From IMG/VR virus record IMGVR_UViG_3300046063_000004, positions 1 to 46,150 of that record: DNA of 46,150 nucleotides; one strand, given 5' to 3'. Position numbers and translations under genes: made by a program. Of this stretch, positions 18,838 to 41,151 are shown piece by piece. The notes beneath the pieces were generated by a model. That model was not told the origin of the DNA. It searched no databases and saw only the letters and a program-made list of their open reading frames with translations. This DNA is from a virus (Duplodnaviria > Caudoviricetes). The stretch's first letter is position 1, and each line of letters starts with the position of its first letter.

Positions 18838-19146
18838 ATGAACGAGTCGCAGTTGACCACCCACATCAAAAAGTCGCTGCTGCAGGCCAGACCCGACATG
18901 TGGATGATCAAGGTCCACGGCGGGCCCATGCAACAGCCCGGGGTGCCTGACTTGATCGGCGTGTGGCGGGGTCAGTTCATCGCCCTAGAGGTCAAACACC
19001 CCAACTCGCGGCATCCCGTCACACCGCGCCAGCAACACGCCATTGACCGGATCACCGCTGCCGGGGGGCTCACGGCGGTCGTATCGTCTGTCAGCGAGGC
19101 GGCCCGTATCGTGCTAGGGGATCAGGGGCAGATCACGCAAGGGTGA
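18838..19146 (+). CDS. VRR-NUC domain nuclease (Holliday junction resolvase-like)
   Basis: ESQL...KVHGG...GVPDLI...ALEVK...Q......I..AGG. Confidence 0.92.
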   Translation: MNESQLTTHIKKSLLQARPDMWMIKVHGGPMQQPGVPDLIGVWRGQFIALEVKHPNSRHPVTPRQQHAIDRITAAGGLTAVVSSVSEAARIVLGDQGQITQG

Positions 19147-22100
19147 GTCAGAGCCTTCTTGCTGGTACCTCTTGAGCTTTTCCTGATAGCCAAAGCGTCG
19201 ATTAGCCGCGCGCTCGAAGCGCTGCTGGCGACGCTTGGCGCGCTGGGCCACGTCCTCTTGGCCTGAGGTGATGCCGAATAGCTGGCGCCCGGCCTTCTCC
19301 AACAGCGAGGGCTCCTCGACGCCTTCGGCCAATACCGGCTGGTCGTTGCCATAGCGCGCCAACGTCTCACCCGACAGGCGGCGATAGGTTGATCGCCCAA
19401 GGCTGATCTGTGGCGAGAGGTCGACGATCTGATCACCCAGCGAGGGGGCTGTGGGGATGGGCCGCCCTTGCGGGTCAAGGCGCTCGTAGGGCCGCGAGTA
19501 GGGACGCTGGGTCAGTGGCCTGATCCCGGTCATGTTGCTCAGGCCCATCTGGACCAGCGGACTCATGAGGCTGGCTGAGCCACGCAAGGAGGGGCGGCCA
19601 CCAGAGACGAACGGGCGAGTCACATCCATGAAGGGGTTGGCCCCGCCAACCGAGATGAACGTCGGATCGCCATCCTCGCCGCCTTCGCCGATCTGAATGT
19701 CGCCTCGGCGATAATGGGGCAGCATCTCCTCTTGCTCGTTTGGCTCGCCCCATATCTCGATAAGCATGGCCTGTATGGCAAAGCGGTCGATGTTGCCCGG
19801 CTTGAGCTGCTTGGCGGTAAGCTGGGTGATGTGGCGCGTCCAGGCATAGAAGGGATAGCCACGCCTGATCGCCTGGCGCTCGACCGGGCTCATCGAGGTG
19901 TAATCGCCCAGGGTCTGCTTGGCCGCGCGAATGGCTTGCTGCGGGTTGGCGCCCTCCTCGAGCTGGGACAGATACACCGAGGCGCGATAGATATGATCAA
20001 AGAAGCTGTTGAGCCGAAACGCCCCCTCAACGACGCGCTTGGCCCGGCCACCAACCCTCGAGGTCGTTCCACTTACGAACCGACCCGGGCGCGTGCGCAT
20101 GGCCTCGTCGACCACCGGGATCGCAGACAGACGCTCACCGGTGGCCTGGCCGACGTTGTGGCCAAAAGTTCCCAGCTGGGAGATGTCTCGTTGGAACTCG
20201 CCCATGCTGGTCGAGGTGTCGAATATCTCGTCGCTGCGTGAACGACTCAGGCCGGGCACGTCGGTGGGCTCACCGCGACCCCAACGCATGCGAGCACGGG
20301 CTGCCATGGGCAGATAGCGATAGAGCTGCGATGGCGTGGCCCCGCCACCGAGGATGGGCAGGATGTTTTGCCCGATGTTGTTGAAGACCTGCCAGGCGGG
20401 GCGAAAGGCGAGCACGCCGGCCTTCCATATCCCCATGAGCGGGTCATAGACCGCGTTCATGGCCTTTTCGATGTTGCCTGTCTCGAAGGCGTCCTTGGCA
20501 ACCTTGGCCAAGCCCTCCTTGAGCCAGATATCCGAGCGTGGGGTCTGGCCCTTGCGCTGCAACAGCTCGGCGAACTTGGGGTCGTCAGCGCGAGCAAAGC
20601 CGATGTCGGCCATCTTCTGAGACAGCACGTGGGGCTGTGGCTTCGTCCGGGAGATGACGTTGCCAGCCTCGTCGTAAGTGGTCTTGCCTTCGGCCTCCTC
20701 CATGATCTCATCGACTTTGCCACGCGAGTAACCGGCTTCCTCCAGGGCCTGGCGCGGCGTGCGACCGAACTTCTGGTGGATGTAGCTCACCGCGTCGTCG
20801 CGTAGCTTGTCGGTGACGATGTCCATCTGCTCTTTGGGGATGATGATCGAGGGCTGGTCCTCAGCGTTGATGTTGCCACTAGAGTGGGCTCGGCGGAAAC
20901 GCCGCTGTGCCGTTGCAGCCAACGCCCCTGTAGGTCGGGCCATGAAGTCACCCGACTCGGCGGCCTTGGTACTGACATAGGAAACGTTGACGCCCGCGTC
21001 GGCCAGTTCCTCCAGGGTGGTGGGCAGCCCTGTGAGGTTTAGCTCATCGACCAGGTGATGGGGCACCTCCAGGTCCTCGCGCAGCATGCGATCCAGCTCG
21101 GGGGCCTCCTCGCGAGCAAAGCGCAACGCCTCACGGTAGTGGCGTGGTGCGGTCTCCAGGCGCTGGTTGACGTCGTCCTGGAAGTTCTTCATGCGCGTGC
21201 GGGCAGCCTGGAGCTTTTGTTGCTTCTTAGCCAGGTCCTCCAGGTGGGCGCGTGCCTGGCTTTGGGTCTGGGCCAGGTGCTGCTCAAAGTCGCGCGACTC
21301 GTCCTGATACCGCCGCGCCAGCGCTGATAGCTCGGCGATCTGGCGGTCGAAGTAGTCGCCGCCTTGGCTGCCCAGGGCTTGCCTGCCTCGACGCACCGAC
21401 GACTGACCGCGGTTGGCCGCCCACTGGTGACGCGGCGAGCCCTGGACCTGGGCATTGCCGGCCCGACTGGTTCGGTTACTGGCCCACGCCAGGGCCTGCT
21501 GGTACTCCGGGGTATCGGCCAGGCGGGGATTAGCCCGAGCGGCGCGGTGCAGCGCACGCAGCTCCGGTGAGACCCCCGACAGCCCCTCGCGGCCGATCAT
21601 AGCTAAGATCGGCGACACCTCGGGCATGAGCGACTGGACCTGCTCTAGCTCACCCACGGCCTCGTTGAACCGCGCCAAGGCTTGCTCGTCGGGGGCAAGC
21701 TCGTCGCTGTTGCGCGCGTAGTACAGCAGATCCGAGAGCTTGCCCTCAATCTGTGCGGCCAAGTCGCGCATGGGCTTGGGGCGCCCACCAATGCCTGACA
21801 GCACCAGCTCGTTCTCAAAGGCATTGAGCTGTTCATAGGCGCGCGCGTAGGTGTCCCATGCCTGCTGACCCTGGGCCGTTTCGGGATCGGCGTTCAAGGC
21901 CTCCTTCTCGCGCATGCGCATCTCGGCGTGTAGCTCGTTGTAGCGATCCAGCGCTTCGGCGCGGTGGGCAGCGAACTTGTCGCGCACGAGCTGGGTCTGG
22001 CGATTGACGTCGCGCTCGGCCTTGTCGATGACCCGTTGTTTGCGCCACAGCTTCTTCTGAGTACTCCTTTCTGGGCTGACCCGCTCAGTTGGGGGCTGCT

Positions 22101-24252
22101 CGTCGGGGCCCATCGCCTCATAGACGTCGTTGGTGGGCTCCTCTTTCTCCCAGCGCGCCTCGGCCTTGTCCAGGTCAGCGCGTGCCTTTTGCACCTGATC
22201 GGGCGTGGCGTTGGGGTCTTGCTCGAGTTTTTGCACCCGGCGGTGCTGATCGGCCAAGTACTGAGGCACTTCATCCACAGTGAGATTGGCTGCGCCTTGA
22301 TCACCACGCATGATCGCGTCGGGATCGCTGTTGAAGTCCAAGTCCCCGCTTTGGGTGTCGCGGACCACACGCTGAGTCGGTCGAGCCTGGGTCATGCGCA
22401 CTGCGCCCTGCTGCGTTGAGATGCGACCCTCTTGGATGAGCTGGGCCTCATGCTCGCGCTGCCAGCTTCGCCAGGTGCGCGCCGCCCGGTTGACCACGTC
22501 CTTTGTTGACTCGTCGAGCTGTGACCAGGCCACGCCGCCTTCTTGTGGCTGCATCATCTCCGATGCCATGTTCTGGCGCAGCATCGCGTCAATCTCATCG
22601 GGGCTCATGCCCTGGGCTTGCCCGGCTTCCTTAGCCAGGCGCTGTGCCTCGTCCTGGGACTCGAGCAGGTCGTCCAGCTGAGCCTTGCGCGTGACGAGAC
22701 GCTGCAACGAGCCTTCGGGCAAGCCCTGGGCTCTCTCGGCCTGGGCCACCCGAGTCAGTGACCAGTCCAAGTCGCGCGTGCCGGGGATGTCGATGGGCTC
22801 TTCTCCGCGCTGAACCCGGCGCTGGTTGGCCTGCTCGATCTCGTCCATGACGCGGCCCATCTGGGCCGGGTCTTGCTCGAGCTGGGTTTGGGTGCTCTTC
22901 TTGGTATCCATCGAGCGCGTGGGCACATTCACGCCCTCATCGGCGAGCTGCGAATAGCGCTGTTGGATGCCACGGGCAATGCGCTGGGTGGCCTTGTTCA
23001 TGTCAAAGCGCGCGTTCAGGTTGGCCCGGTGCTTAGCCATGGCCTGTTTCGTGCGGCTCATGGTGCGCCGCACCCCACGCCCAGCTTGAGAGAAGCGCGA
23101 TTGGGCCAACTTGCGGCCCATGGGCGTGTTATCCATGAACCTGTTGAGCTGCTCGCGCGTGCGAAGCGCAGTCGGTGAGAACTCGTCTACTTCGGGTGCG
23201 TTGCGTGGCCGGCGCACCTGCCGCGTGAGATCGGCCAGGCTCTGGCTACGTGCCCCGGCGCGACGGGCCGACAGCAACGTGCCCGCCACCGCGCCACCCA
23301 CGCCACCGGTCAGTGTCATGTCAGCCAGTGAGCCGGCCGCGGCCGCGCCTGCACCACTTCCCGTTGGGCCGGTCCCCCCACCACGTGAGCCAAGCGGGCC
23401 TCGAGGTGTCGGCTCTCCCGTCTCGGGATCGGTGCCGGTATAGCGCCCACCCAAGCCGGGGATCTTGGTGCCCACGGCCTTGCGGGCAGCCGCAGAGTAG
23501 GGACGCCCGATGGTGCGGCTGCTCAAGCGGCTGGCCTTGGCCAGTGAGCCGGCCCGGCCGCCTTGTTGCTCGATCTCGCGCAGAACTTCTTGACGGGCAC
23601 GCCGCGGTGAGGTCGTGGGGGCCTTGCCCTGTTGCAAGTCGGCCTTGCGCTGAACGCGCGCGGCCTTTTTCGCCCCGGTGATGCCCCCCGTGCGCGCTGC
23701 GGCCCCGCCAGCACGAGCGCTGGCTCCAGCGGCTGCCTTGCCGAGCACGGCGCCGGCACCGCTGCTGACCAGCGAGACGTTGCCCAAGTGCTCGAGTGTG
23801 AAGCTAGCCGGGCGCTCATAGAAGTTGCGTAGTGTCTCTTCTTGGAACTCCTTTTGGGCCTGCATGGCCTCGCCAAGTCCCTCACCCTTGGCGATCTCTT
23901 TCCAGAAGTCGATCTGGCCACCAGAGGCCACATTGGCTGTCTTGGGTATCGACTCGGTGAGGATGGGCTCGGCGAGCTTGTTCCACGTGTCCAGTTGCCA
24001 GTCGGCGTCGCCGCCTTCGGCCTCCTCGAAGACGTTGGTATCGAGCTGGGCGATGTCGCCGCCCACGGCCGTGGCGACCTCTGTGGCCGCCCGGGGCAGC
24101 TTGGACAGCACCCCACTGGCATCGCTTGCCAGGTTGCCCAGAAAGCCAGACACACCCTCGCTGGGATCAGCCGGCTTGGAAGGATCAAGCTGGCGACGCT
24201 GACCCGTCGTGATGCCATTGCTGTCGCTACTGCTGTCAGTGATATGGGCCAT
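19114..24252 (-). CDS. large internal virion / DNA ejection protein
   Basis: 1712 aa, helical; last gene of the virion operon; C-terminal PFYAWTR...NPF..SPLVQ..TG pattern seen in podovirus ejection proteins. Confidence 0.7.
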   Translation of the reverse strand: MAHITDSSSDSNGITTGQRRQLDPSKPADPSEGVSGFLGNLASDASGVLSKLPRAATEVATAVGGDIAQLDTNVFEEAEGGDADWQLDTWNKLAEPILTESIPKTANVASGGQIDFWKEIAKGEGLGEAMQAQKEFQEETLRNFYERPASFTLEHLGNVSLVSSGAGAVLGKAAAGASARAGGAAARTGGITGAKKAARVQRKADLQQGKAPTTSPRRARQEVLREIEQQGGRAGSLAKASRLSSRTIGRPYSAAARKAVGTKIPGLGGRYTGTDPETGEPTPRGPLGSRGGGTGPTGSGAGAAAAGSLADMTLTGGVGGAVAGTLLSARRAGARSQSLADLTRQVRRPRNAPEVDEFSPTALRTREQLNRFMDNTPMGRKLAQSRFSQAGRGVRRTMSRTKQAMAKHRANLNARFDMNKATQRIARGIQQRYSQLADEGVNVPTRSMDTKKSTQTQLEQDPAQMGRVMDEIEQANQRRVQRGEEPIDIPGTRDLDWSLTRVAQAERAQGLPEGSLQRLVTRKAQLDDLLESQDEAQRLAKEAGQAQGMSPDEIDAMLRQNMASEMMQPQEGGVAWSQLDESTKDVVNRAARTWRSWQREHEAQLIQEGRISTQQGAVRMTQARPTQRVVRDTQSGDLDFNSDPDAIMRGDQGAANLTVDEVPQYLADQHRRVQKLEQDPNATPDQVQKARADLDKAEARWEKEEPTNDVYEAMGPDEQPPTERVSPERSTQKKLWRKQRVIDKAERDVNRQTQLVRDKFAAHRAEALDRYNELHAEMRMREKEALNADPETAQGQQAWDTYARAYEQLNAFENELVLSGIGGRPKPMRDLAAQIEGKLSDLLYYARNSDELAPDEQALARFNEAVGELEQVQSLMPEVSPILAMIGREGLSGVSPELRALHRAARANPRLADTPEYQQALAWASNRTSRAGNAQVQGSPRHQWAANRGQSSVRRGRQALGSQGGDYFDRQIAELSALARRYQDESRDFEQHLAQTQSQARAHLEDLAKKQQKLQAARTRMKNFQDDVNQRLETAPRHYREALRFAREEAPELDRMLREDLEVPHHLVDELNLTGLPTTLEELADAGVNVSYVSTKAAESGDFMARPTGALAATAQRRFRRAHSSGNINAEDQPSIIIPKEQMDIVTDKLRDDAVSYIHQKFGRTPRQALEEAGYSRGKVDEIMEEAEGKTTYDEAGNVISRTKPQPHVLSQKMADIGFARADDPKFAELLQRKGQTPRSDIWLKEGLAKVAKDAFETGNIEKAMNAVYDPLMGIWKAGVLAFRPAWQVFNNIGQNILPILGGGATPSQLYRYLPMAARARMRWGRGEPTDVPGLSRSRSDEIFDTSTSMGEFQRDISQLGTFGHNVGQATGERLSAIPVVDEAMRTRPGRFVSGTTSRVGGRAKRVVEGAFRLNSFFDHIYRASVYLSQLEEGANPQQAIRAAKQTLGDYTSMSPVERQAIRRGYPFYAWTRHITQLTAKQLKPGNIDRFAIQAMLIEIWGEPNEQEEMLPHYRRGDIQIGEGGEDGDPTFISVGGANPFMDVTRPFVSGGRPSLRGSASLMSPLVQMGLSNMTGIRPLTQRPYSRPYERLDPQGRPIPTAPSLGDQIVDLSPQISLGRSTYRRLSGETLARYGNDQPVLAEGVEEPSLLEKAGRQLFGITSGQEDVAQRAKRRQQRFERAANRRFGYQEKLKRYQQEGSDSPLRDLPLIP

Positions 24253-34215: not shown

Positions 34216-36717
34216 TTACTCGCCGCCTTGGGACTGCTCAGGCTGGTCCTCGGGCTGACGGCCCGGGGCTCCCTGCCCGCGTGGGCTCGGCCCCTGCACG
34301 CTCTGGCCTTCTCTTTCGCCTTGGCCACCGCCTGGGGCTTGGCCACCTCCAGCGCTGCCAGGGGCAGGCTGCTGGGGTTGAGCCTGCTGCTGGGCTTGCT
34401 GTTGCTGAGCCAGACCCATCGTGTTTTGCATCTGCTGCTCCCAGATCTGGCCCATGGATTGGGTGGCCTGGCCCGGCGAGGCCTGGGGCTGCTGGGAGAC
34501 CATCTGGGCCTGCAGAGCGGCCTGGTGGGCCGTGATGTGGGCGGTGAAGGCGTACTGGCGATAGGTGGGCCACTGCTCGAACTCAGCCATCTTGCGCATG
34601 CGGTTGTGGACCTGTAAGTGCACCAGGTGCTCGTGCCAGTCGGCCGGGCGCAGCGCCTCGACCTGGGCTTGGAAGTGATCCAGGTCGATCTCGCCGGTGT
34701 CGGGGTTGGCCACGGTTAGCTCCTCAAAGAGCTGGTTCTCCCTGCGAGCGTGGCGAAGGTCGATCTGGCGTTCGTTGAAGACCTTGCGCAGCCCACCCAT
34801 CTCCAGCACACGAGCAGCCTCAGACTGATCAATCAGGCCGTACTCCAGGGCCCGGTACACCTCGGCTTCCTTCTCGGCTTTGGAGAAGGGCCAGCCCGAG
34901 CCGGGCTGGACCCAGAAGTTGCCCCCGATCTGATCGCCCCGGATGAAAGCGCGGGCCTCGATGTCGCCCTCCTCACCCAGCACCGTGACCACGCGCTGAT
35001 CGCTCCACAACTGCCGCGCCATGCTCAGAATGATGTTGCCCTGCTTTTGCACCGCGCGCTCAATGGAGCGAATGGGAATGGAGGATGCCGAGTCGTCCAT
35101 CTCCTTCAACGAGTTGATGGCCGTGCCTGAGCGCACGTTGGGCGGGGTAGTGCCACGGGAGACCTCGTGCATGAATGTGAGGTCAGAAACGGACTGCCGG
35201 GTCAGCTCGATCTCACGCAGGATCAGCTCGCCGGCCTCGGGCACCTGCACGTTGTGGGCCGGCTGGGTCGAGCCCGGAGGCATCTCATAGATCGTCGACT
35301 TGCCTCCCAACGCGCCCTTGACCTGGGTGCCCCGGGGCAGGGCCACACCCACCGAGGAGTGCAGGTTGACCTGCTCAACCATGCCCGAGGCGGCGCGGTT
35401 GTGGCGCCGTTGCAAGGGAATGAGCGCTTGGACCATCCCCTTGCTCCAAAAGCTGCCCGGCACCTTGGTGTAGTCGATCTTGGCAAAGGGGTACTGGCGC
35501 TGCAGATACTCCGGCCACGGACGCTTGTCCAGGATCTGGCCCCCAGCGGTGATCAGGATCAACCCATCGGGGGCACGGCGGCTGGGCTTGACCCAGGTCT
35601 CTTTGACGATTGCGGTGGGCACCTTGGGCGCGCTGGACGAGCTGGGCATATGGGTGGGGCTCATGCCGCCTTGGAGCACCTGGGTCATGCGCTCATCGAG
35701 CATGCCGTAGCGCCCTTGGGTGTCGGCCTCGACCTCTATGCCCCAGCGCTCGTAGATCTCGTCAAGCTCGTAGGCCTTGGTGATCATCACATAGGGCTGA
35801 TCCTCGATATCGGCCTTGCGGATGTGGGGCACGCCCAACTCGAAGCACGACAGGGTGCGGAACTCGAAGTCGCCCATGCGTTGAGTCCCGTAGCGGCCAC
35901 CACCGGGCTGGCCGCCAATCGGGCCCTGACCCGGCATCTGACCACCTGGCTGACCCGGCATCTGATTGCCGCCCGGCATCTGGTTGCCCAGACCGCCGGC
36001 CTGTAACTGAGAGGCCAGGTCCTGCGGGGCCATGTTGGCACCGCCGCCACGCCGGCCAGCCAGGGCATCTGGCGATTGCGAGGGATCCAGCCCTTCCAGT
36101 GGGTCGACGACCTCGCCGGGGTCCATGCCGGGGATGTCGCCCTCGCCCTGTTTCTGTGGCCCAGCATCGGGATCCCACTGGGTGTCAATGACCGACGTGC
36201 CACCAAACAACGCCCACAGCGCGGCCTCCTCGAAGTACTCCTCCAGGCTCTGCTCTCTAGTGACGTGCTCGATGATGCGCTGGCCAGCTCGAGCAGCCTC
36301 GTAGTCCTGGCCATCCAGCCCGTCGGGCACGACCACGCCGTAGGGGCGATTGCGCAGCAAGCGGGCAAGCTCGGAGCGCACAGCCGGCTCGATGAGGTTA
36401 TCAACAGTGCGCACCCGGCCCTTCTTGGCCGGCAACTGGGTCAGCATCGTGCCCGCGTTGGGCACCTGATAGAAGTCCACGTACTGCTGATCCAGATAGA
36501 AGGCCGTGGCCAGCAGTGCCCAGCGCTCCACGTGCTGGCGGTTGCGCGTGACCCGGGAGAACCACTCGTCGTTGAGCGAGATCAGCTCTTGGTCGCTCAT
36601 CTGCGCAAAGGGCTTGTAGCGCTGACCCTTGGCCCCGGGCTGGCCCTGCTCGTTTGCATAGCCCAATCGCAAGGCATCGGTCATGCTCGTGCCCGCCATT
36701 GGCGGCTGGGAACTCAT
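34216..36717 (-). CDS. portal protein (podovirus-type, long Q-rich C-terminus)
   Basis: 833 aa after terminase; DNLIEP, YPF, G.VQALIPLQ..HN, SRG....VRSGTAI motifs. Confidence 0.85.
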   Translation of the reverse strand: MSSQPPMAGTSMTDALRLGYANEQGQPGAKGQRYKPFAQMSDQELISLNDEWFSRVTRNRQHVERWALLATAFYLDQQYVDFYQVPNAGTMLTQLPAKKGRVRTVDNLIEPAVRSELARLLRNRPYGVVVPDGLDGQDYEAARAGQRIIEHVTREQSLEEYFEEAALWALFGGTSVIDTQWDPDAGPQKQGEGDIPGMDPGEVVDPLEGLDPSQSPDALAGRRGGGANMAPQDLASQLQAGGLGNQMPGGNQMPGQPGGQMPGQGPIGGQPGGGRYGTQRMGDFEFRTLSCFELGVPHIRKADIEDQPYVMITKAYELDEIYERWGIEVEADTQGRYGMLDERMTQVLQGGMSPTHMPSSSSAPKVPTAIVKETWVKPSRRAPDGLILITAGGQILDKRPWPEYLQRQYPFAKIDYTKVPGSFWSKGMVQALIPLQRRHNRAASGMVEQVNLHSSVGVALPRGTQVKGALGGKSTIYEMPPGSTQPAHNVQVPEAGELILREIELTRQSVSDLTFMHEVSRGTTPPNVRSGTAINSLKEMDDSASSIPIRSIERAVQKQGNIILSMARQLWSDQRVVTVLGEEGDIEARAFIRGDQIGGNFWVQPGSGWPFSKAEKEAEVYRALEYGLIDQSEAARVLEMGGLRKVFNERQIDLRHARRENQLFEELTVANPDTGEIDLDHFQAQVEALRPADWHEHLVHLQVHNRMRKMAEFEQWPTYRQYAFTAHITAHQAALQAQMVSQQPQASPGQATQSMGQIWEQQMQNTMGLAQQQQAQQQAQPQQPAPGSAGGGQAPGGGQGEREGQSVQGPSPRGQGAPGRQPEDQPEQSQGGE

Positions 36718-37137
36718 CTAGGCTCCTCCCACCGTTGGGCCCTCCATGTCGACCCCGCGAGCCAGCCATTGGGCCTCGATCGAGTCGTCGACCGTCTCGC
36801 CCCAGCCCACGTCGTCGAAGCCGTGAGGCTCGGCCGGCTCGGAAGATCCGAGTAGCTTCCACCCGCCCGATTGAGTCGCGTGCTGGCCAGCAACGGTCTT
36901 GTCGGTGGCATTGGGCGTGTTTTGCTGCAGCGCGGTGAACTCCTGCCAGGAGTTGGCGGCCAACCGGTTGTGCAGCTCGGCGATGTAATGCTCGCGCTGA
37001 TCCAGAAGCTGGGAGTACTCGCTGCGCAGATCACTGATCTCAGCGCGCCAAAACCGCGACAGGGCGAACACGGTCGCCGCCACGGTGGCCAGCATGACCA
37101 GCGCGAGGACGAAAGCCAGGATCACAACGGTCGTCAC
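36718..37137 (-). CDS. membrane protein with coiled coil
   Basis: N-terminal TM; overlaps the upstream gene. Confidence 0.7.
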   Translation of the reverse strand: MTTVVILAFVLALVMLATVAATVFALSRFWRAEISDLRSEYSQLLDQREHYIAELHNRLAANSWQEFTALQQNTPNATDKTVAGQHATQSGGWKLLGSSEPAEPHGFDDVGWGETVDDSIEAQWLARGVDMEGPTVGGA

Positions 37138-38054
37138 GAGGTCTCTCCTTCCTCTTCATCATCGACGATCAGCTCGTCTTCATCGACTGGTTCGTTATCC
37201 CGCTCGTGGCCGGCGTTCTCGTCGATGGGCTGGTCGTAGTCCTGATCCCGGGCGCCCTCGACGAACTCAAAGCCCAAGCCGGTGATTAGCCCCTTGCGCG
37301 CGCGTCCATAGCCGCGGTCGGCCAGCTCCAGCTCGCGGTTGACCACCTGGGTGCGAAACTCCTCGGAGTGGCCCTCACAGAAGGCGATGATGTCGGCCAC
37401 TTTCTCGGCCAGCAGCGCGTCGATGTCGACCTCTTGGCCCTCGAGCTGAGTCGTCATGGGCGTGGATGGCTGGCCGTGATCCTGCTGCGTGGTGGGCGCG
37501 GTGCTTTGTTGTTGTTGTTGGGTCTGCTCGGCGCGCTTGCGGGCCACGTCGGCGTAGTGCTTGGCCTTGCGGCGTTGATGCGGCGCGCCGTAAAGCTGCT
37601 CGTGCTCGACCGCGCTGCCTGGCTCGGGGGGCTGGTGATGTCGCAGCAGGGGGTGGTTGGGGTGCTCAATGAGCCATTGCTCGATCTCGTCGCGGGTGGG
37701 GTCGCGCACTTCTCTCTTGATCTCGGTGACCACCTCAGCCTCGGGTGAGGGCATGACCTCGGCTGCCGCATTGGCCAGGCGCATGACCAGCTCTTGGTAC
37801 TTGTCGGCCTGGTCCTGCAAGTGGTTCGCACGAGCTTCCTCTTGGGCCGCCTGATCGCGCAGCTTGGCGGCCTGGTCCGGGTCAACCCAGCCCTGTTGGC
37901 GCAACGGCTTGGCAATGGCGTCGATCTTGACGTACAGGCGTCCATAGCCGTTGATGTCGCGGCCAAGGTCGAGTACCGGCCCCCGACCGTCGCCAGAGAC
38001 GACACACGTCATGGGTGACGTTTTTGGCTTGGGCAGGATCTGGACATTGGCCAT
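37134..38054 (-). CDS. hypothetical protein
   Basis: ~306 aa, GAGG RBS before ATG 38054, coiled coil. Confidence 0.7.
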   Translation of the reverse strand: MANVQILPKPKTSPMTCVVSGDGRGPVLDLGRDINGYGRLYVKIDAIAKPLRQQGWVDPDQAAKLRDQAAQEEARANHLQDQADKYQELVMRLANAAAEVMPSPEAEVVTEIKREVRDPTRDEIEQWLIEHPNHPLLRHHQPPEPGSAVEHEQLYGAPHQRRKAKHYADVARKRAEQTQQQQQSTAPTTQQDHGQPSTPMTTQLEGQEVDIDALLAEKVADIIAFCEGHSEEFRTQVVNRELELADRGYGRARKGLITGLGFEFVEGARDQDYDQPIDENAGHERDNEPVDEDELIVDDEEEGETS

Positions 38055-38071
38055 GTTTGCACCTCTTCGAT

Positions 38072-39178
38072 TTAGGATAACAGCCACATGTCGTCTAACG
38101 AGTCCTCGTCTGCTTCTTCGCCCACCAGATCAGCCGGGGTCAGCTCCTCGGTTAGCTCTGGCTGTGACTCGTCGACCACGGGGGCCTGGCGAACGTCCTG
38201 GTCGTTGGCCTGCAGATAAATCTTGGCCAGCTCGGAGATGTGGGACTCGCTCTCGTCTTCCTCCAAGTCCAGCAAGTTTGATGTGATGCCGATGTTGAGG
38301 TTGCAGGCGGCGATGTACTCCAAGGCGTCCATGAGGTGCACATAAGGCTCCTCTTGGACCTTCTTGCCCAGGTCTGGCATCTCGCGATCACCCGTGCCCG
38401 CGTCAGCTTCCGGGTAGCGATAAGCCGAGGAGAGAGCCTTGATCAGCAGCGTGCAGTGGGGGTTGACGCGGAACTTGCCCTCGCGCTCGACGTACTCGCG
38501 CAGGTAGTTGATGCGGTTCTTGCGACCCACGACCGACCACTCAGGGTCGATGCCGAACTGGTTGAGTACCTCGATGGATGAGAACTCGCTGTTCTCCTTG
38601 CGTTGATTGCCCGCCGGATCGCAGAAGTCGGCGATCCCCGCGCTGTCTTGCTCTAATGCCTGGGGAAACAGGCGCTGGGTCTGGTCAATGACCTTCTTGG
38701 CCAACTGGTGGGTGGATAGCCCAGCGAGCTGGTCGCGGTCGATGGTGGGATACAGCTCGTGCAAGCACACCAGCGTGTCGTCGGGCCACAGTTGGGCCCA
38801 CACCACGGCCGGGTGGCGATAGCCAAAGTCCCAGCCGCGCCACAGCGGCACCCGGGGGTTGTAGCGGGTGGGCCGCACGCTGTTGTTGGGGTCGAACTGA
38901 GAGTAGACGGCCTCACCGGAGAAGGCGGTGAAGTCGATCTCCATCTCGCGTTGCCAGTCGCGGCCTTGGAAGCCGCCCCGGTAGCCCACGACGTAGTGGT
39001 TGCGCCACTCACTCGTCGCCCGGTCGGGGTCGGCGGTGTAGTGCAGCCGGAGCACCAGATAGCCATCGTTGGTCTTCCAGCCCCGGATGCCGGGCATCAC
39101 CGGCTCGGGGATGCGCGTGCGTGGCAGCTTGAACGTGAACTCACCGGAGTCGCTGCCGTCCGCGTGCGCCTCGGGCAT
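38072..39178 (-). CDS. terL: terminase large subunit, C-terminal (lid plus RNase H-fold nuclease) part
   Basis: LHYTADP, WQREMEIDF..FSG.AVY, RGWDFGYRHPAVVW, CDPAG, HLMDALEY. Confidence 0.88.
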   Translation of the reverse strand: MPEAHADGSDSGEFTFKLPRTRIPEPVMPGIRGWKTNDGYLVLRLHYTADPDRATSEWRNHYVVGYRGGFQGRDWQREMEIDFTAFSGEAVYSQFDPNNSVRPTRYNPRVPLWRGWDFGYRHPAVVWAQLWPDDTLVCLHELYPTIDRDQLAGLSTHQLAKKVIDQTQRLFPQALEQDSAGIADFCDPAGNQRKENSEFSSIEVLNQFGIDPEWSVVGRKNRINYLREYVEREGKFRVNPHCTLLIKALSSAYRYPEADAGTGDREMPDLGKKVQEEPYVHLMDALEYIAACNLNIGITSNLLDLEEDESESHISELAKIYLQANDQDVRQAPVVDESQPELTEELTPADLVGEEADEDSLDDMWLLS

Positions 39179-39209
39179 GGCTTGCCTCGACGTGGTGGGC
39201 TAGCTGCTG

Positions 39210-39374
39210 CTAGCTGCTCGAGCTGGAGTTGGCCTCGATGGCGGCCTGCTGCATATACGCCTTGCGCTTGGCCCGCTTACGGCTCTGTTCATCGCCAGCG
39301 GTGTAGTGGTACTTGGCCTGGCCGCCGTACTGATAGTAGTGGCCCTGGCTGTCCTTGCCTGCGTGCACCGGCAT
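39210..39374 (-). CDS. small basic phage protein inserted between the terL halves (54 aa, MPVHAGKDSQGHYYQYGGQAKYHYTAGDEQSRKRAKRKAYMQQAAIEAN...)
   Basis: GAGGAG RBS, ATG 39374, TAG 39210-39212; below the ORF-track cutoff; different frame from terL. Confidence 0.75.
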   Translation of the reverse strand: MPVHAGKDSQGHYYQYGGQAKYHYTAGDEQSRKRAKRKAYMQQAAIEANSSSSS

Positions 39375-39385
39375 AGGAAGGCTCC

Positions 39386-40300
39386 TCAAGCCCCAGCAGG
39401 CACGGGGATGCGGCCATTCTCGCTCAGCGTAGAGTGAAAGACCTCCTCACCGTTGGGCGTGCTCACTCCGGTGAAGCGCCCACCTCCCTTGACGGTGGGC
39501 ATCGCAGCCCTGAAAATATCATCTGCCTGTTCTTGAAACGCGACCTCATCGGAAAAAACCCAACTGAAAGTAAACTGTCTTAGCCCTTTTGCTTCTTCGC
39601 CCATTGCATGAACAATAGACTCCATCTGAGGGCAACTGACTTCACCACTTTTTCGGTGTTTATCGAATGCGGCCGGCACGGAGAAGCGGCTGTGCGGCAG
39701 CCGGTTGTAGATCGTCTCCATGCGGTCGATCAGCGAGTCGGCGTCCTCGAACTTCTTAGAGATCACCGCCATGCGCTGTGCCGGGCGCACCAGCAAGTTG
39801 TGGGTGGCGATGCAGCAAAACAGCCAGGTGACCATGACCTGGCGGCTCTTGGGCACCAGCAACAGCGGCTGAAAGACCCAGGCATAGCTGAGTAGGCGCA
39901 GGTAGTCCTTGTCGGGCAGCGTCTTGTAGGGGTTGGCCTCGTCGTGCTCGTCCAGCGTCTGAGCCCAGCCGCCCACTCGCACCTTGACCCACGGGTTGTC
40001 ATCGGGGTCGTAGGCCCGCTGCGGGTCTACTGGTAGCCCCGTGATGTCGACCAGCCCGCCGAAGAGGAACCAGCGCAGGCTGTCCCAATGCTTGCGCTGA
40101 TAGAAGCGATCCCTTACTCGACGCTGGGCCACATCGCCCGTCTGACGCTTGGCGTCGGCAATGGCCTGTTGCTCCTTGCTGGTGAAGTCAGCGATGGTCG
40201 TGGCCCGCAGCCACGCCTTCTTGTCGACCAGCTCCTTCAGGGCCACCAGGTCGTCCTGGGACAGCTCTCGTAGTGCGGCCGGTAAGTCTTGCGTCTTCAT
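39386..40300 (-). CDS. terL: terminase large subunit, N-terminal ATPase part
   Basis: Walker A VPKSRQVMVTW, Walker B VFSDEVAF, motif III VSTPNG. Confidence 0.9.
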   Translation of the reverse strand: MKTQDLPAALRELSQDDLVALKELVDKKAWLRATTIADFTSKEQQAIADAKRQTGDVAQRRVRDRFYQRKHWDSLRWFLFGGLVDITGLPVDPQRAYDPDDNPWVKVRVGGWAQTLDEHDEANPYKTLPDKDYLRLLSYAWVFQPLLLVPKSRQVMVTWLFCCIATHNLLVRPAQRMAVISKKFEDADSLIDRMETIYNRLPHSRFSVPAAFDKHRKSGEVSCPQMESIVHAMGEEAKGLRQFTFSWVFSDEVAFQEQADDIFRAAMPTVKGGGRFTGVSTPNGEEVFHSTLSENGRIPVPAGA

Positions 40301-41151
40301 TCGAGTGTGATCGTAGAGAGATCGCTTGCGTTGTCGACCGTAACGCTGTCAGAAGGCGTATCGTCCTCGCCAGGGGAGGGGGCGGGAGTCTCATCGCCAG
40401 ACGGGTTGGCTGACGGGTCTGCTGGCGGGTTGGCCTCAATGACCTGGGCCGCCTCCATGTCGGGTGGCTTGGACACCTGATCCTCGGTGACCACCACCCC
40501 GGCGATCAGCGCGGTGATCTGGCGATTGACCCCCTCCACGCCGCCGAGGCCGTCTGCGCTCTGAGCTTTCGTCTGGGCCAACCTGGCCGCGCTGTTTTTG
40601 TCCTCGCCGAAGGTCTCGGGCTCCAGCAGCGCCTGAACGCGCATGTAACGGTCGAAGACGTCCTTGAAGGCGCTGTTGCGAGAGGCCAGGCTCGCCACGT
40701 ACTGGCTGTTGAGCCCGTCCTTGGTGACGTCGTGGTACTCCTTGGTCTCTACCTCCAGAGACGCAAGCAGCTCGTAGAGCTTGGCCTCCAGGCTCTGGCT
40801 CAATGCCTGTAGCCGGGACGTAGAAGCCTTCTCGTGTGACCCCTTGGCGCGCCCGTACAGCGTCCAGCCATTTTTCAGCGCCAGCGACTTGACCCGGGCG
40901 GGCGAGGTCGAGAACTCGCGGGCCACCTGGGCCAGGTTGCCCCCCGTACGCACGAACGCGGCCTTGATCCCCTCGATCTCGTCATCGGCGACGGGGCGGT
41001 CCAGGGGCTGTTGGAGCTGGTTGTCCTGAGCACTTTCTAGGCTTGATTGGGCAGGGCTCGAGTTACCCGAGGAGGGGGGCTCCACCCGTGGGTCGGGCTG
41101 CTGATCGGGCGGGACCGCCTTGGAGAAGTCGACGACGATCTGGTCACCCAT
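40297..41151 (-). CDS. terS: terminase small subunit (HTH)
   Basis: GNLAQVAREFSTSPARVKSLALKNGW HTH; overlaps the terL start. Confidence 0.65.
   Translation of the reverse strand: MGDQIVVDFSKAVPPDQQPDPRVEPPSSGNSSPAQSSLESAQDNQLQQPLDRPVADDEIEGIKAAFVRTGGNLAQVAREFSTSPARVKSLALKNGWTLYGRAKGSHEKASTSRLQALSQSLEAKLYELLASLEVETKEYHDVTKDGLNSQYVASLASRNSAFKDVFDRYMRVQALLEPETFGEDKNSAARLAQTKAQSADGLGGVEGVNRQITALIAGVVVTEDQVSKPPDMEAAQVIEANPPADPSANPSGDETPAPSPGEDDTPSDSVTVDNASDLSTITLE

Follow-up and report, generated by a model that had tools for sequence, protein, structure and literature searches.

A large terminase encoded by two genes

We analyzed a 46,150-nucleotide (nt) stretch of viral DNA (positions 1 to 46,150 of the IMG/VR record IMGVR_UViG_3300046063_000004, Caudoviricetes; hereinafter, the window) in which the large terminase subunit, TerL, is encoded in two pieces on the minus strand. 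The list of open reading frames (ORFs) places the gene for chain 1 (304 amino acids (aa), an ATPase core with a conserved IPxPxG-x tail) at 39386..40300 and that for chain 2 (368 aa) at 38072..39178. As the original prediction, made from this sequence, had stated, the two ORFs share one reading frame, are separated in it by two stop codons (TGA at 39388-39386 and TAG at 39202-39200) and enclose a 54-aa gene, the passenger, that extends from an ATG at 39374 to a stop at 39210 on the same strand in a frame different from that of either half. The ribosome-binding site predicted for the second half, GAGG, is indeed present 6 nt ahead of the chain 2 ATG; the corresponding site of the passenger, GAGGAG, precedes its ATG and overlaps the stop codon of chain 1 (39375..39388, minus strand). 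Two copies of a 14-nt direct repeat, also on the minus strand, encode RIPVP in the chain 1 tail (39399..39412) and RIPEP at residues 22-26 of chain 2 (39102..39115); the copies are identical at 13 of the 14 positions and, as previously described, are spaced by 297 nt. The repeat scan and the sequences of close relatives additionally delineate an AGC-rich 10-nt tandem duplication at the passenger stop (39199..39218).

Both halves match the TerL family phrog_2 (E ~9e-10), chain 1 over columns 253-406 and chain 2 over columns 421-587, and chain 2 also matches phrog_10250; neither matches any Pfam family. The alignment profile of chain 1 matches residues 152-299 of T4 gp17 (E 1.4e-12) and includes a deviant Walker A motif (K151-R153), Walker B (D251-E252) and motif III (276-283), with K151, R153, D251 and E252 invariant in the alignment. 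The Walker A segment (39824-39853, minus strand; residues 150-159) has a Lys and an Arg at its start and lacks the Gly-Lys found in T4 gp17; this deviation is not due to the split because it is shared by the fused relatives P0087 and P0174. In the structural model (predicted local distance difference test score, pLDDT, 91.9), the motif III strand (275-280) is the last strand of chain 1 and is followed by a single helix and a tail in coil conformation. By its sequence signatures, chain 1 is a predicted ATPase core of the additional strand catalytic glutamate (ASCE) class, with Walker A, Walker B and motif III, from a phrog_2-type TerL.

The model of chain 2 (pLDDT 84.2) contains three short strands (25-45) and two helices (56-79) ahead of a domain that aligns to known terminase nucleases: residues 88-296 to D6E TerL 234-417 (Z 20.2, root-mean-square deviation 2.5, 183 aligned residues) and residues 89-297 to T4 gp17 361-558 (Z 14.1, deviation 3.2, 168 aligned). 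The modeled fold also matches the TerL of P22 and SPP1, whereas a PDB sequence search with the chain 2 profile yielded no match. Together with the invariance of D117, D187 and D284 in 68 sequences, these comparisons identify a predicted RuvC-like nuclease fold with acidic catalytic residues. Chain 2 thus appears to consist of a conserved head (residues 16-30), about 65 residues that would comprise the last ATPase strand or strands and the lid, the nuclease (88-297) and an acidic tail, such that its residues 1-88 would stand for approximately residues 300-360 of T4 gp17, that is, the end of the ATPase domain and the lid. The break would then fall in a variable loop before the hinge between the lid and the nuclease, and this hinge would stay covalent.

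The split as a family trait

The search with chain 1 retrieved 94 proteins, the 80 closest of which (43-98% identity) are all stand-alone; except for one intein-bearing form, these are 284-334 aa long, and 79 of the 80 end one residue past a conserved Gly. The chain 2 search returned 144 proteins, of which 120 were listed. None of the 80 close chain 1 proteins matches the chain 2 profile, and none of the 76 close chain 2 proteins matches that of chain 1; among longer proteins, the chain 1 search produced a single distant match at 36% identity, which is weak evidence.

We then compared 170 rows, that is, 169 fetched loci (L001-L169, duplicates included) and the window, retrieved with search patterns that were derived from split proteins and for which the best 80 of 261 and the best 80 of 351 matches were kept. 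TerL is split in 132 of these rows and fused in 25, and 13 have no detectable second half; clustering of the 157 rows with both halves at 90% identity gave 89 split and 16 fused clusters (n=105). In every one of the 89 split clusters, chain 1 ends 13-29 aa past motif III. In 34 of them, the stop of gene 1 and an in-frame ATG of gene 2 are no more than 30 nt apart (11 of these are ATGA overlaps), and the Met start of gene 2 is conserved in 94% of 68 sequences. A quick tree built from 104 ATPase cores, without L012, places the window in a clade of 6 clusters, all split, with 100% support in the Shimodaira-Hasegawa-like approximate likelihood ratio test; the split or fused label requires 5 changes over the tree, 2 being forced by the starred branches. 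The fused terminases of L035, L129 and L150 are interspersed, with weak support, among split ones, a placement that may reflect either re-fusion or repeated fission.

Two close relatives, the siblings L001 and L002, come from other assemblies and show the same layout as the window, and in contigs from another study, the passenger and part of each half can be traced at 90-95% identity. A misassembly or a decaying pseudogene would account for an interrupted TerL, and the window does lie on one contig with a mean depth of 14, possibly its source; nevertheless, given these independent assemblies, the invariant catalytic residues and the mostly silent change in both terminase genes against the two siblings (48/6, 42/7; 79/19, 85/11), such an artifact has a negligible probability. 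The two-gene terminase, which the original prediction had put forward as one of its readings, is real and under selection, and its seam is unusual. Most of the fetched relatives likewise encode TerL in two genes, and two protein chains likely make up the motor. No isolate close to the clade of the window was found among GenBank phages, the best matches to the window halves and to two distant split members being at 22-36% identity; all 53 pattern matches in GTDB genomes went unconfirmed (0 confirmed), and therefore no host was found.

A split intein was considered and rejected: no intein family matches at E 0.1, there is no room for intein halves and, in agreement with what had been noted from the sequence, no intron, intein or homing endonuclease is seen in the gap.

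Several relatives of the individual chains carry insertions of their own. P0076, 97% identical to chain 1, contains an intein-like LAGLIDADG insert right before Walker B (PF14528, E 4.9e-8; PF14890 below the cut-off) and is nonetheless split at the same place. Among the chain 2 relatives, P0186 has a long insert that matches intein families below their cut-offs, and P0104 has an insert of about 260 aa that starts with Cys, ends with His-Asn before a Ser and has no Pfam match. In P0163 (locus L005, IMGVR_UViG_3300028388_002042), chain 2 is seemingly fused to a homolog of the product of the gene that comes next in the window (37134-38087; 32% identity over 236 aa), which could be either a real fusion or an assembly frameshift.

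The repeat, the reading frame and the passenger

The shared frame and the repeat had suggested a rejoinable gene, in which recombination between the copies, or splicing, deletes 297 nt and yields a one-chain TerL, acting as a packaging switch. Sibling L001, whose proteins are 95-98% identical to those of the window, retains both frame and repeat at a spacing of 300 nt, the frame being preserved through two indels (+4 and -1, sum 3). The product of the deletion would have a 45-aa linker, within the range of the fused relatives (43-58 aa in 12 of the 16 fused clusters and in P0087, the other 4 not being measurable), and such fused relatives do exist (16/105 clusters). In sibling L002 (97-98% identity), however, the spacing is 293 nt, the halves are out of frame, and the repeat is reduced to 11/14, the second copy carrying two synonymous changes. 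The length differences among the siblings sit in the spacer before the passenger and in the AGC-rich stretch at its end; this stretch, which differs in length and contains the 10-nt duplication in the window, helps set the frame. Across the 89 split clusters, the frame is shared in 27, as expected by chance, and a junction repeat of at least 13 nt is present in 4, two of them in frame (the cluster of the window and L079, the latter with a 15-nt repeat); the other 87 lack an in-frame junction repeat of this length.

Furthermore, the deletion would take near-invariant residues from both chain ends, namely G303 of chain 1 (conserved in 53/53) and the head of chain 2, F16-K17-L18-P19-x-T21 (68-97% of 68 sequences; P19 97%, T21 90%), and the conservation of these residues points to a role only in the two-chain state. 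The RIP motif is present in 0 of the 12 measured fused-cluster junctions, and no close fused protein was found in the search among long proteins, which is weak evidence, or among the 120 of 144 chain 2 matches listed. The interval matches no Rfam family at the gathering score (the best hit, to a snoRNA at E 0.38, is far below) and folds no better than shuffled sequences (z 0.65). A rejoined joint was not detected in the assembled contigs of 4 of the 10 listed runs, although contigs cannot exclude a rare deletion. On this evidence, a rejoinable terminase gene appears extremely unlikely.

The shared frame of the window would also be compatible with joining of the halves during translation, by readthrough or by ribosomal bypass of the T4 gene 60 type; phages are known to use bypass, over a gap of 50 nt (10.1101/2022.08.31.505936). 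Here, the gap is 207 nt and includes a translated gene as well as two stops; the end of the first repeat copy is three codons ahead of the stop, and no in-frame match to the last sense codon, GCT, exists between the second stop and the second repeat copy, so that a matched landing codon is missing. With the frame not conserved among the split clusters and lost in L002, and with gene 2 having its own ribosome-binding site and conserved Met start, there is next to no likelihood that the halves are joined in this manner.

How, then, did the repeat arise? An Ile-Pro-x-Pro motif is conserved at both ends of the break (I298 96% and P301 94% in chain 1; P24 100% and P26 93% in chain 2). This conservation, along with the in-frame junction repeat of L079, would fit a stable split in which the RIPxP pair is a relic of a small duplication at the original fission. 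But RIPxP itself occurs in only 25/80 chain 1 tails and 13/76 chain 2 heads, a DNA repeat is not expected to survive at 43-60% protein identity, and the five other near-clade clusters have no repeat longer than 10 nt at the RIPxP motifs. The profile comparison of the two halves gave nothing (probability 0.06), and in distant split members the two ends read as different parts of the fused linker. We consider such a relic unlikely. The 13/14 repeat is more readily explained as a probable coincidence in which two Pro-rich motifs, each conserved independently of the other, are spelled in the GC-rich codons that the phage prefers. With the two peptides and the phage codon usage fixed, identity at 13 or more of the 14 positions has a probability of 0.04, and in the 25.3-kilobase late-gene region, 17 different direct repeats (the window repeat included) match at 13/14 or better with copies no more than 500 nt apart, all 17 in frame; because of these values and the 4/89 junctions, the repeat is uncommon at a given junction, at a few percent, but ordinary genome-wide. 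The new end motifs are conserved in the near clade and are shorter or absent in distant split members.

The passenger protein is basic and has no Pfam or PHROG match and no match in GenBank phages. Comparison with the siblings (13/3 and 7/1 synonymous/non-synonymous codons) suggests a genuine gene under purifying selection. Feature matches in the ESM Atlas (0.94-0.96), which provide a lead only, point to unnamed clusters; of the three displayed, two are viral. Purifying selection and translational coupling to gene 1 could be taken to mean that the passenger is a third required subunit or an assembly factor of the terminase. This option is very improbable: among loci L001-L169 and the window, the passenger is confined to the window and the two siblings (it also occurs in viral contigs), whereas close relatives have no gene at this place (L005, L006, L014) or have genes unrelated to the passenger (L097). 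A special role of the passenger in the terminase is, accordingly, not supported.

L005, L006/L007 and L014/L015 (51-56% identity) lack the passenger; their terminase genes adjoin or overlap each other, with neither peptide motif missing. Because TerL is split and both motifs occur even in these passenger-free relatives, the repeat did not arise as a target-site duplication of the passenger, and an excisable insertion flanked by such a duplication was rejected on the same grounds (L005, L006, L014). Thus, of the overall interpretation offered originally, the two-gene terminase stands, whereas its creation by insertion with target duplication and its operation as a switch are not supported. Gaps between the halves reach 2622 nt in the 89 split clusters, and an ORF of at least 35 aa is present in 34 of the 44 gaps longer than 150 nt; these ORFs are mostly unrelated to one another, and outside the siblings none in the 44 clusters resembles the passenger. 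The gap serves as an entry point for small genes of unrelated kinds, and the passenger is a later arrival that postdates the split. In the distant split group L008-L011, chain 2 starts with an extra Cys-rich segment (CxxC ... CxxC), and the gap holds one to three small genes.

Beyond the terminase genes, a 284-aa ORF that overlaps the start of chain 1 (40297..41151, minus strand) occupies the usual position of the small terminase gene and has no significant Pfam or PHROG match, and a P22-like portal protein is encoded downstream (34216..36717, minus strand; PF16510, E 3e-16; phrog_156, E 6e-28). The scan for promoters and terminators found one weak site only, on the opposite strand. The virus record has direct terminal repeats and a CheckV completeness of 69%; the sequencing run that best contains it is labeled a halite metagenome and may be its source. 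Other window genes identified are those for PolA, primase, helicase, a Sak4-like protein, the major head protein and amidase; a 1712-aa ORF (19114-24252) has no PHROG match.

A two-chain terminase and its counterparts

Taken together, these observations make it highly probable that TerL is stably divided between two genes, the cut lying directly past motif III; the separately translated products likely re-associate without splicing, with the end of the ATPase fold, the lid and the nuclease likely all provided by chain 2. Under this scheme, the two genes would be translated separately, often with coupling, and the chains would assemble non-covalently into the motor subunit; that they bind each other is suggested by the fact that both halves are under selection and that a working motor is needed. 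Chain 2 would complete the ATPase fold and bring the lid together with the nuclease on a single chain, and the new ends, IPxPxG-x on chain 1 and F-K-L-P-x-T on chain 2, would probably aid assembly. Once the split was in place, the intergenic point could accept small genes, the passenger among them.

Several points weigh against this interpretation. Two of the three sibling genomes, the window included, retain both the frame and the repeat, and the probability of the repeat under codon usage is only the 0.04 given above. The label 'lid' relies on position and profile continuity because the structural alignment covers only residues 88-297 of chain 2; the comparison of the chain 2 profile with gp2 of the Arthrobacter phage BillyTP, considered below, gave nothing and did not show lid homology. 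The ratio of split to fused terminases is biased and represents no census because split proteins were the source of the patterns and the best matches alone were used.

TerL is treated as a single chain in which covalent links transmit force. A cut that occurs naturally and under selection ahead of the lid would show which link of TerL can be non-covalent, and a two-chain terminase represents a ready two-part system for probing the lid and the hinge, in that its chains can be expressed, titrated or mutated one at a time; the frame, the repeat and the passenger of the window are local accidents that add little. TerL is also the usual phage marker gene and neither half matches Pfam, so the split matters for annotation and phylogeny. 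More tentatively, and in our estimate with only a modest chance of being correct, the motor of a large uncultured clade might consist of two modules that can come apart, one being the ATP-binding core and the other a lid and nuclease chain that docks via the Pro-rich ends to complete the ATPase fold. Such a design could allow the phage to load, exchange or dose the cutting chain independently, which would couple ATP turnover to the presence of this chain and alter the surface seen by terminase-sensing host defenses. Bacterial Avs2 sensors bind the ATPase domain of TerL according to the portion of the report available (PMC11564622), and a split ATPase may, speculatively, be sensed differently by Avs2-type defenses.

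Two-gene terminases as such are known; here, the seam lies inside the ATPase domain, just after motif III. In Arthrobacter phages of cluster AY, TerL is distributed over two neighboring genes (gp2/gp3 of BillyTP and of BlueShadow; PMC11920828, PMC12820723). The likeness extends to the ATPase and nuclease on two neighboring genes in viable isolates, with no splicing element mentioned in the available portions of these reports. In contrast to the window, no gene lies between the AY halves, and the cut is at the border of the nuclease: BillyTP gp2 and gp3 are 359 and 198 aa long, with the GFDG motif of gp3 at about residue 14, whereas chain 2 of the window has 116 residues before D117 and 88 before the nuclease fold. 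The AY proteins belong to phrog_9 and the window TerL to phrog_2, and because both the TerL family and the seam differ, the two splits are likely independent.

The fractured genes with split inteins, as far as the accessible text describes them, include a gp17-like terminase (PMC2677866) and resemble the window in that the gene is in two pieces with a gene in between. There, however, a free-standing endonuclease is found along with intein halves, mostly of 88-105 and 33-54 aa, whereas in the window, chain 1 extends at most 29 aa past motif III, and the first predicted strand of chain 2 is preceded by about 24 aa. With T4 gp17, D6E and P22-type terminases, the window shares the ATPase core, the nuclease fold and a P22-like portal nearby, the difference being a single polypeptide there and two chains here. 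The separated ATPase and nuclease domains of T4 keep their activities but lose translocation without the hinge, according to the part of the account at hand (PMC9958956). A cut before the lid would leave the hinge between ATPase and nuclease on one chain, which suggests why the split is tolerated. Our literature search, the coverage of which was incomplete and did not establish absence from print, found no terminase cut inside the ATPase domain.

By analogy, the best functional counterpart is the split NrdA-a/NrdA-b of Aeromonas phage Aeh1, in which, as stated in the part of the report consulted, the new terminal tails are essential for activity (PMC3045599). As in the window, an essential phage enzyme is cut inside a domain, with a gene between the halves, and the enzyme is assembled there without splicing. 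The insert in Aeh1 is the homing endonuclease gene mobE, the cause of the split, whereas the passenger is no endonuclease and arrived after it; the tails of NrdA, moreover, serve higher assembly rather than the heterodimer. The ends of the two terminase chains would likely aid assembly in a manner similar to that of the Aeh1 NrdA tails.

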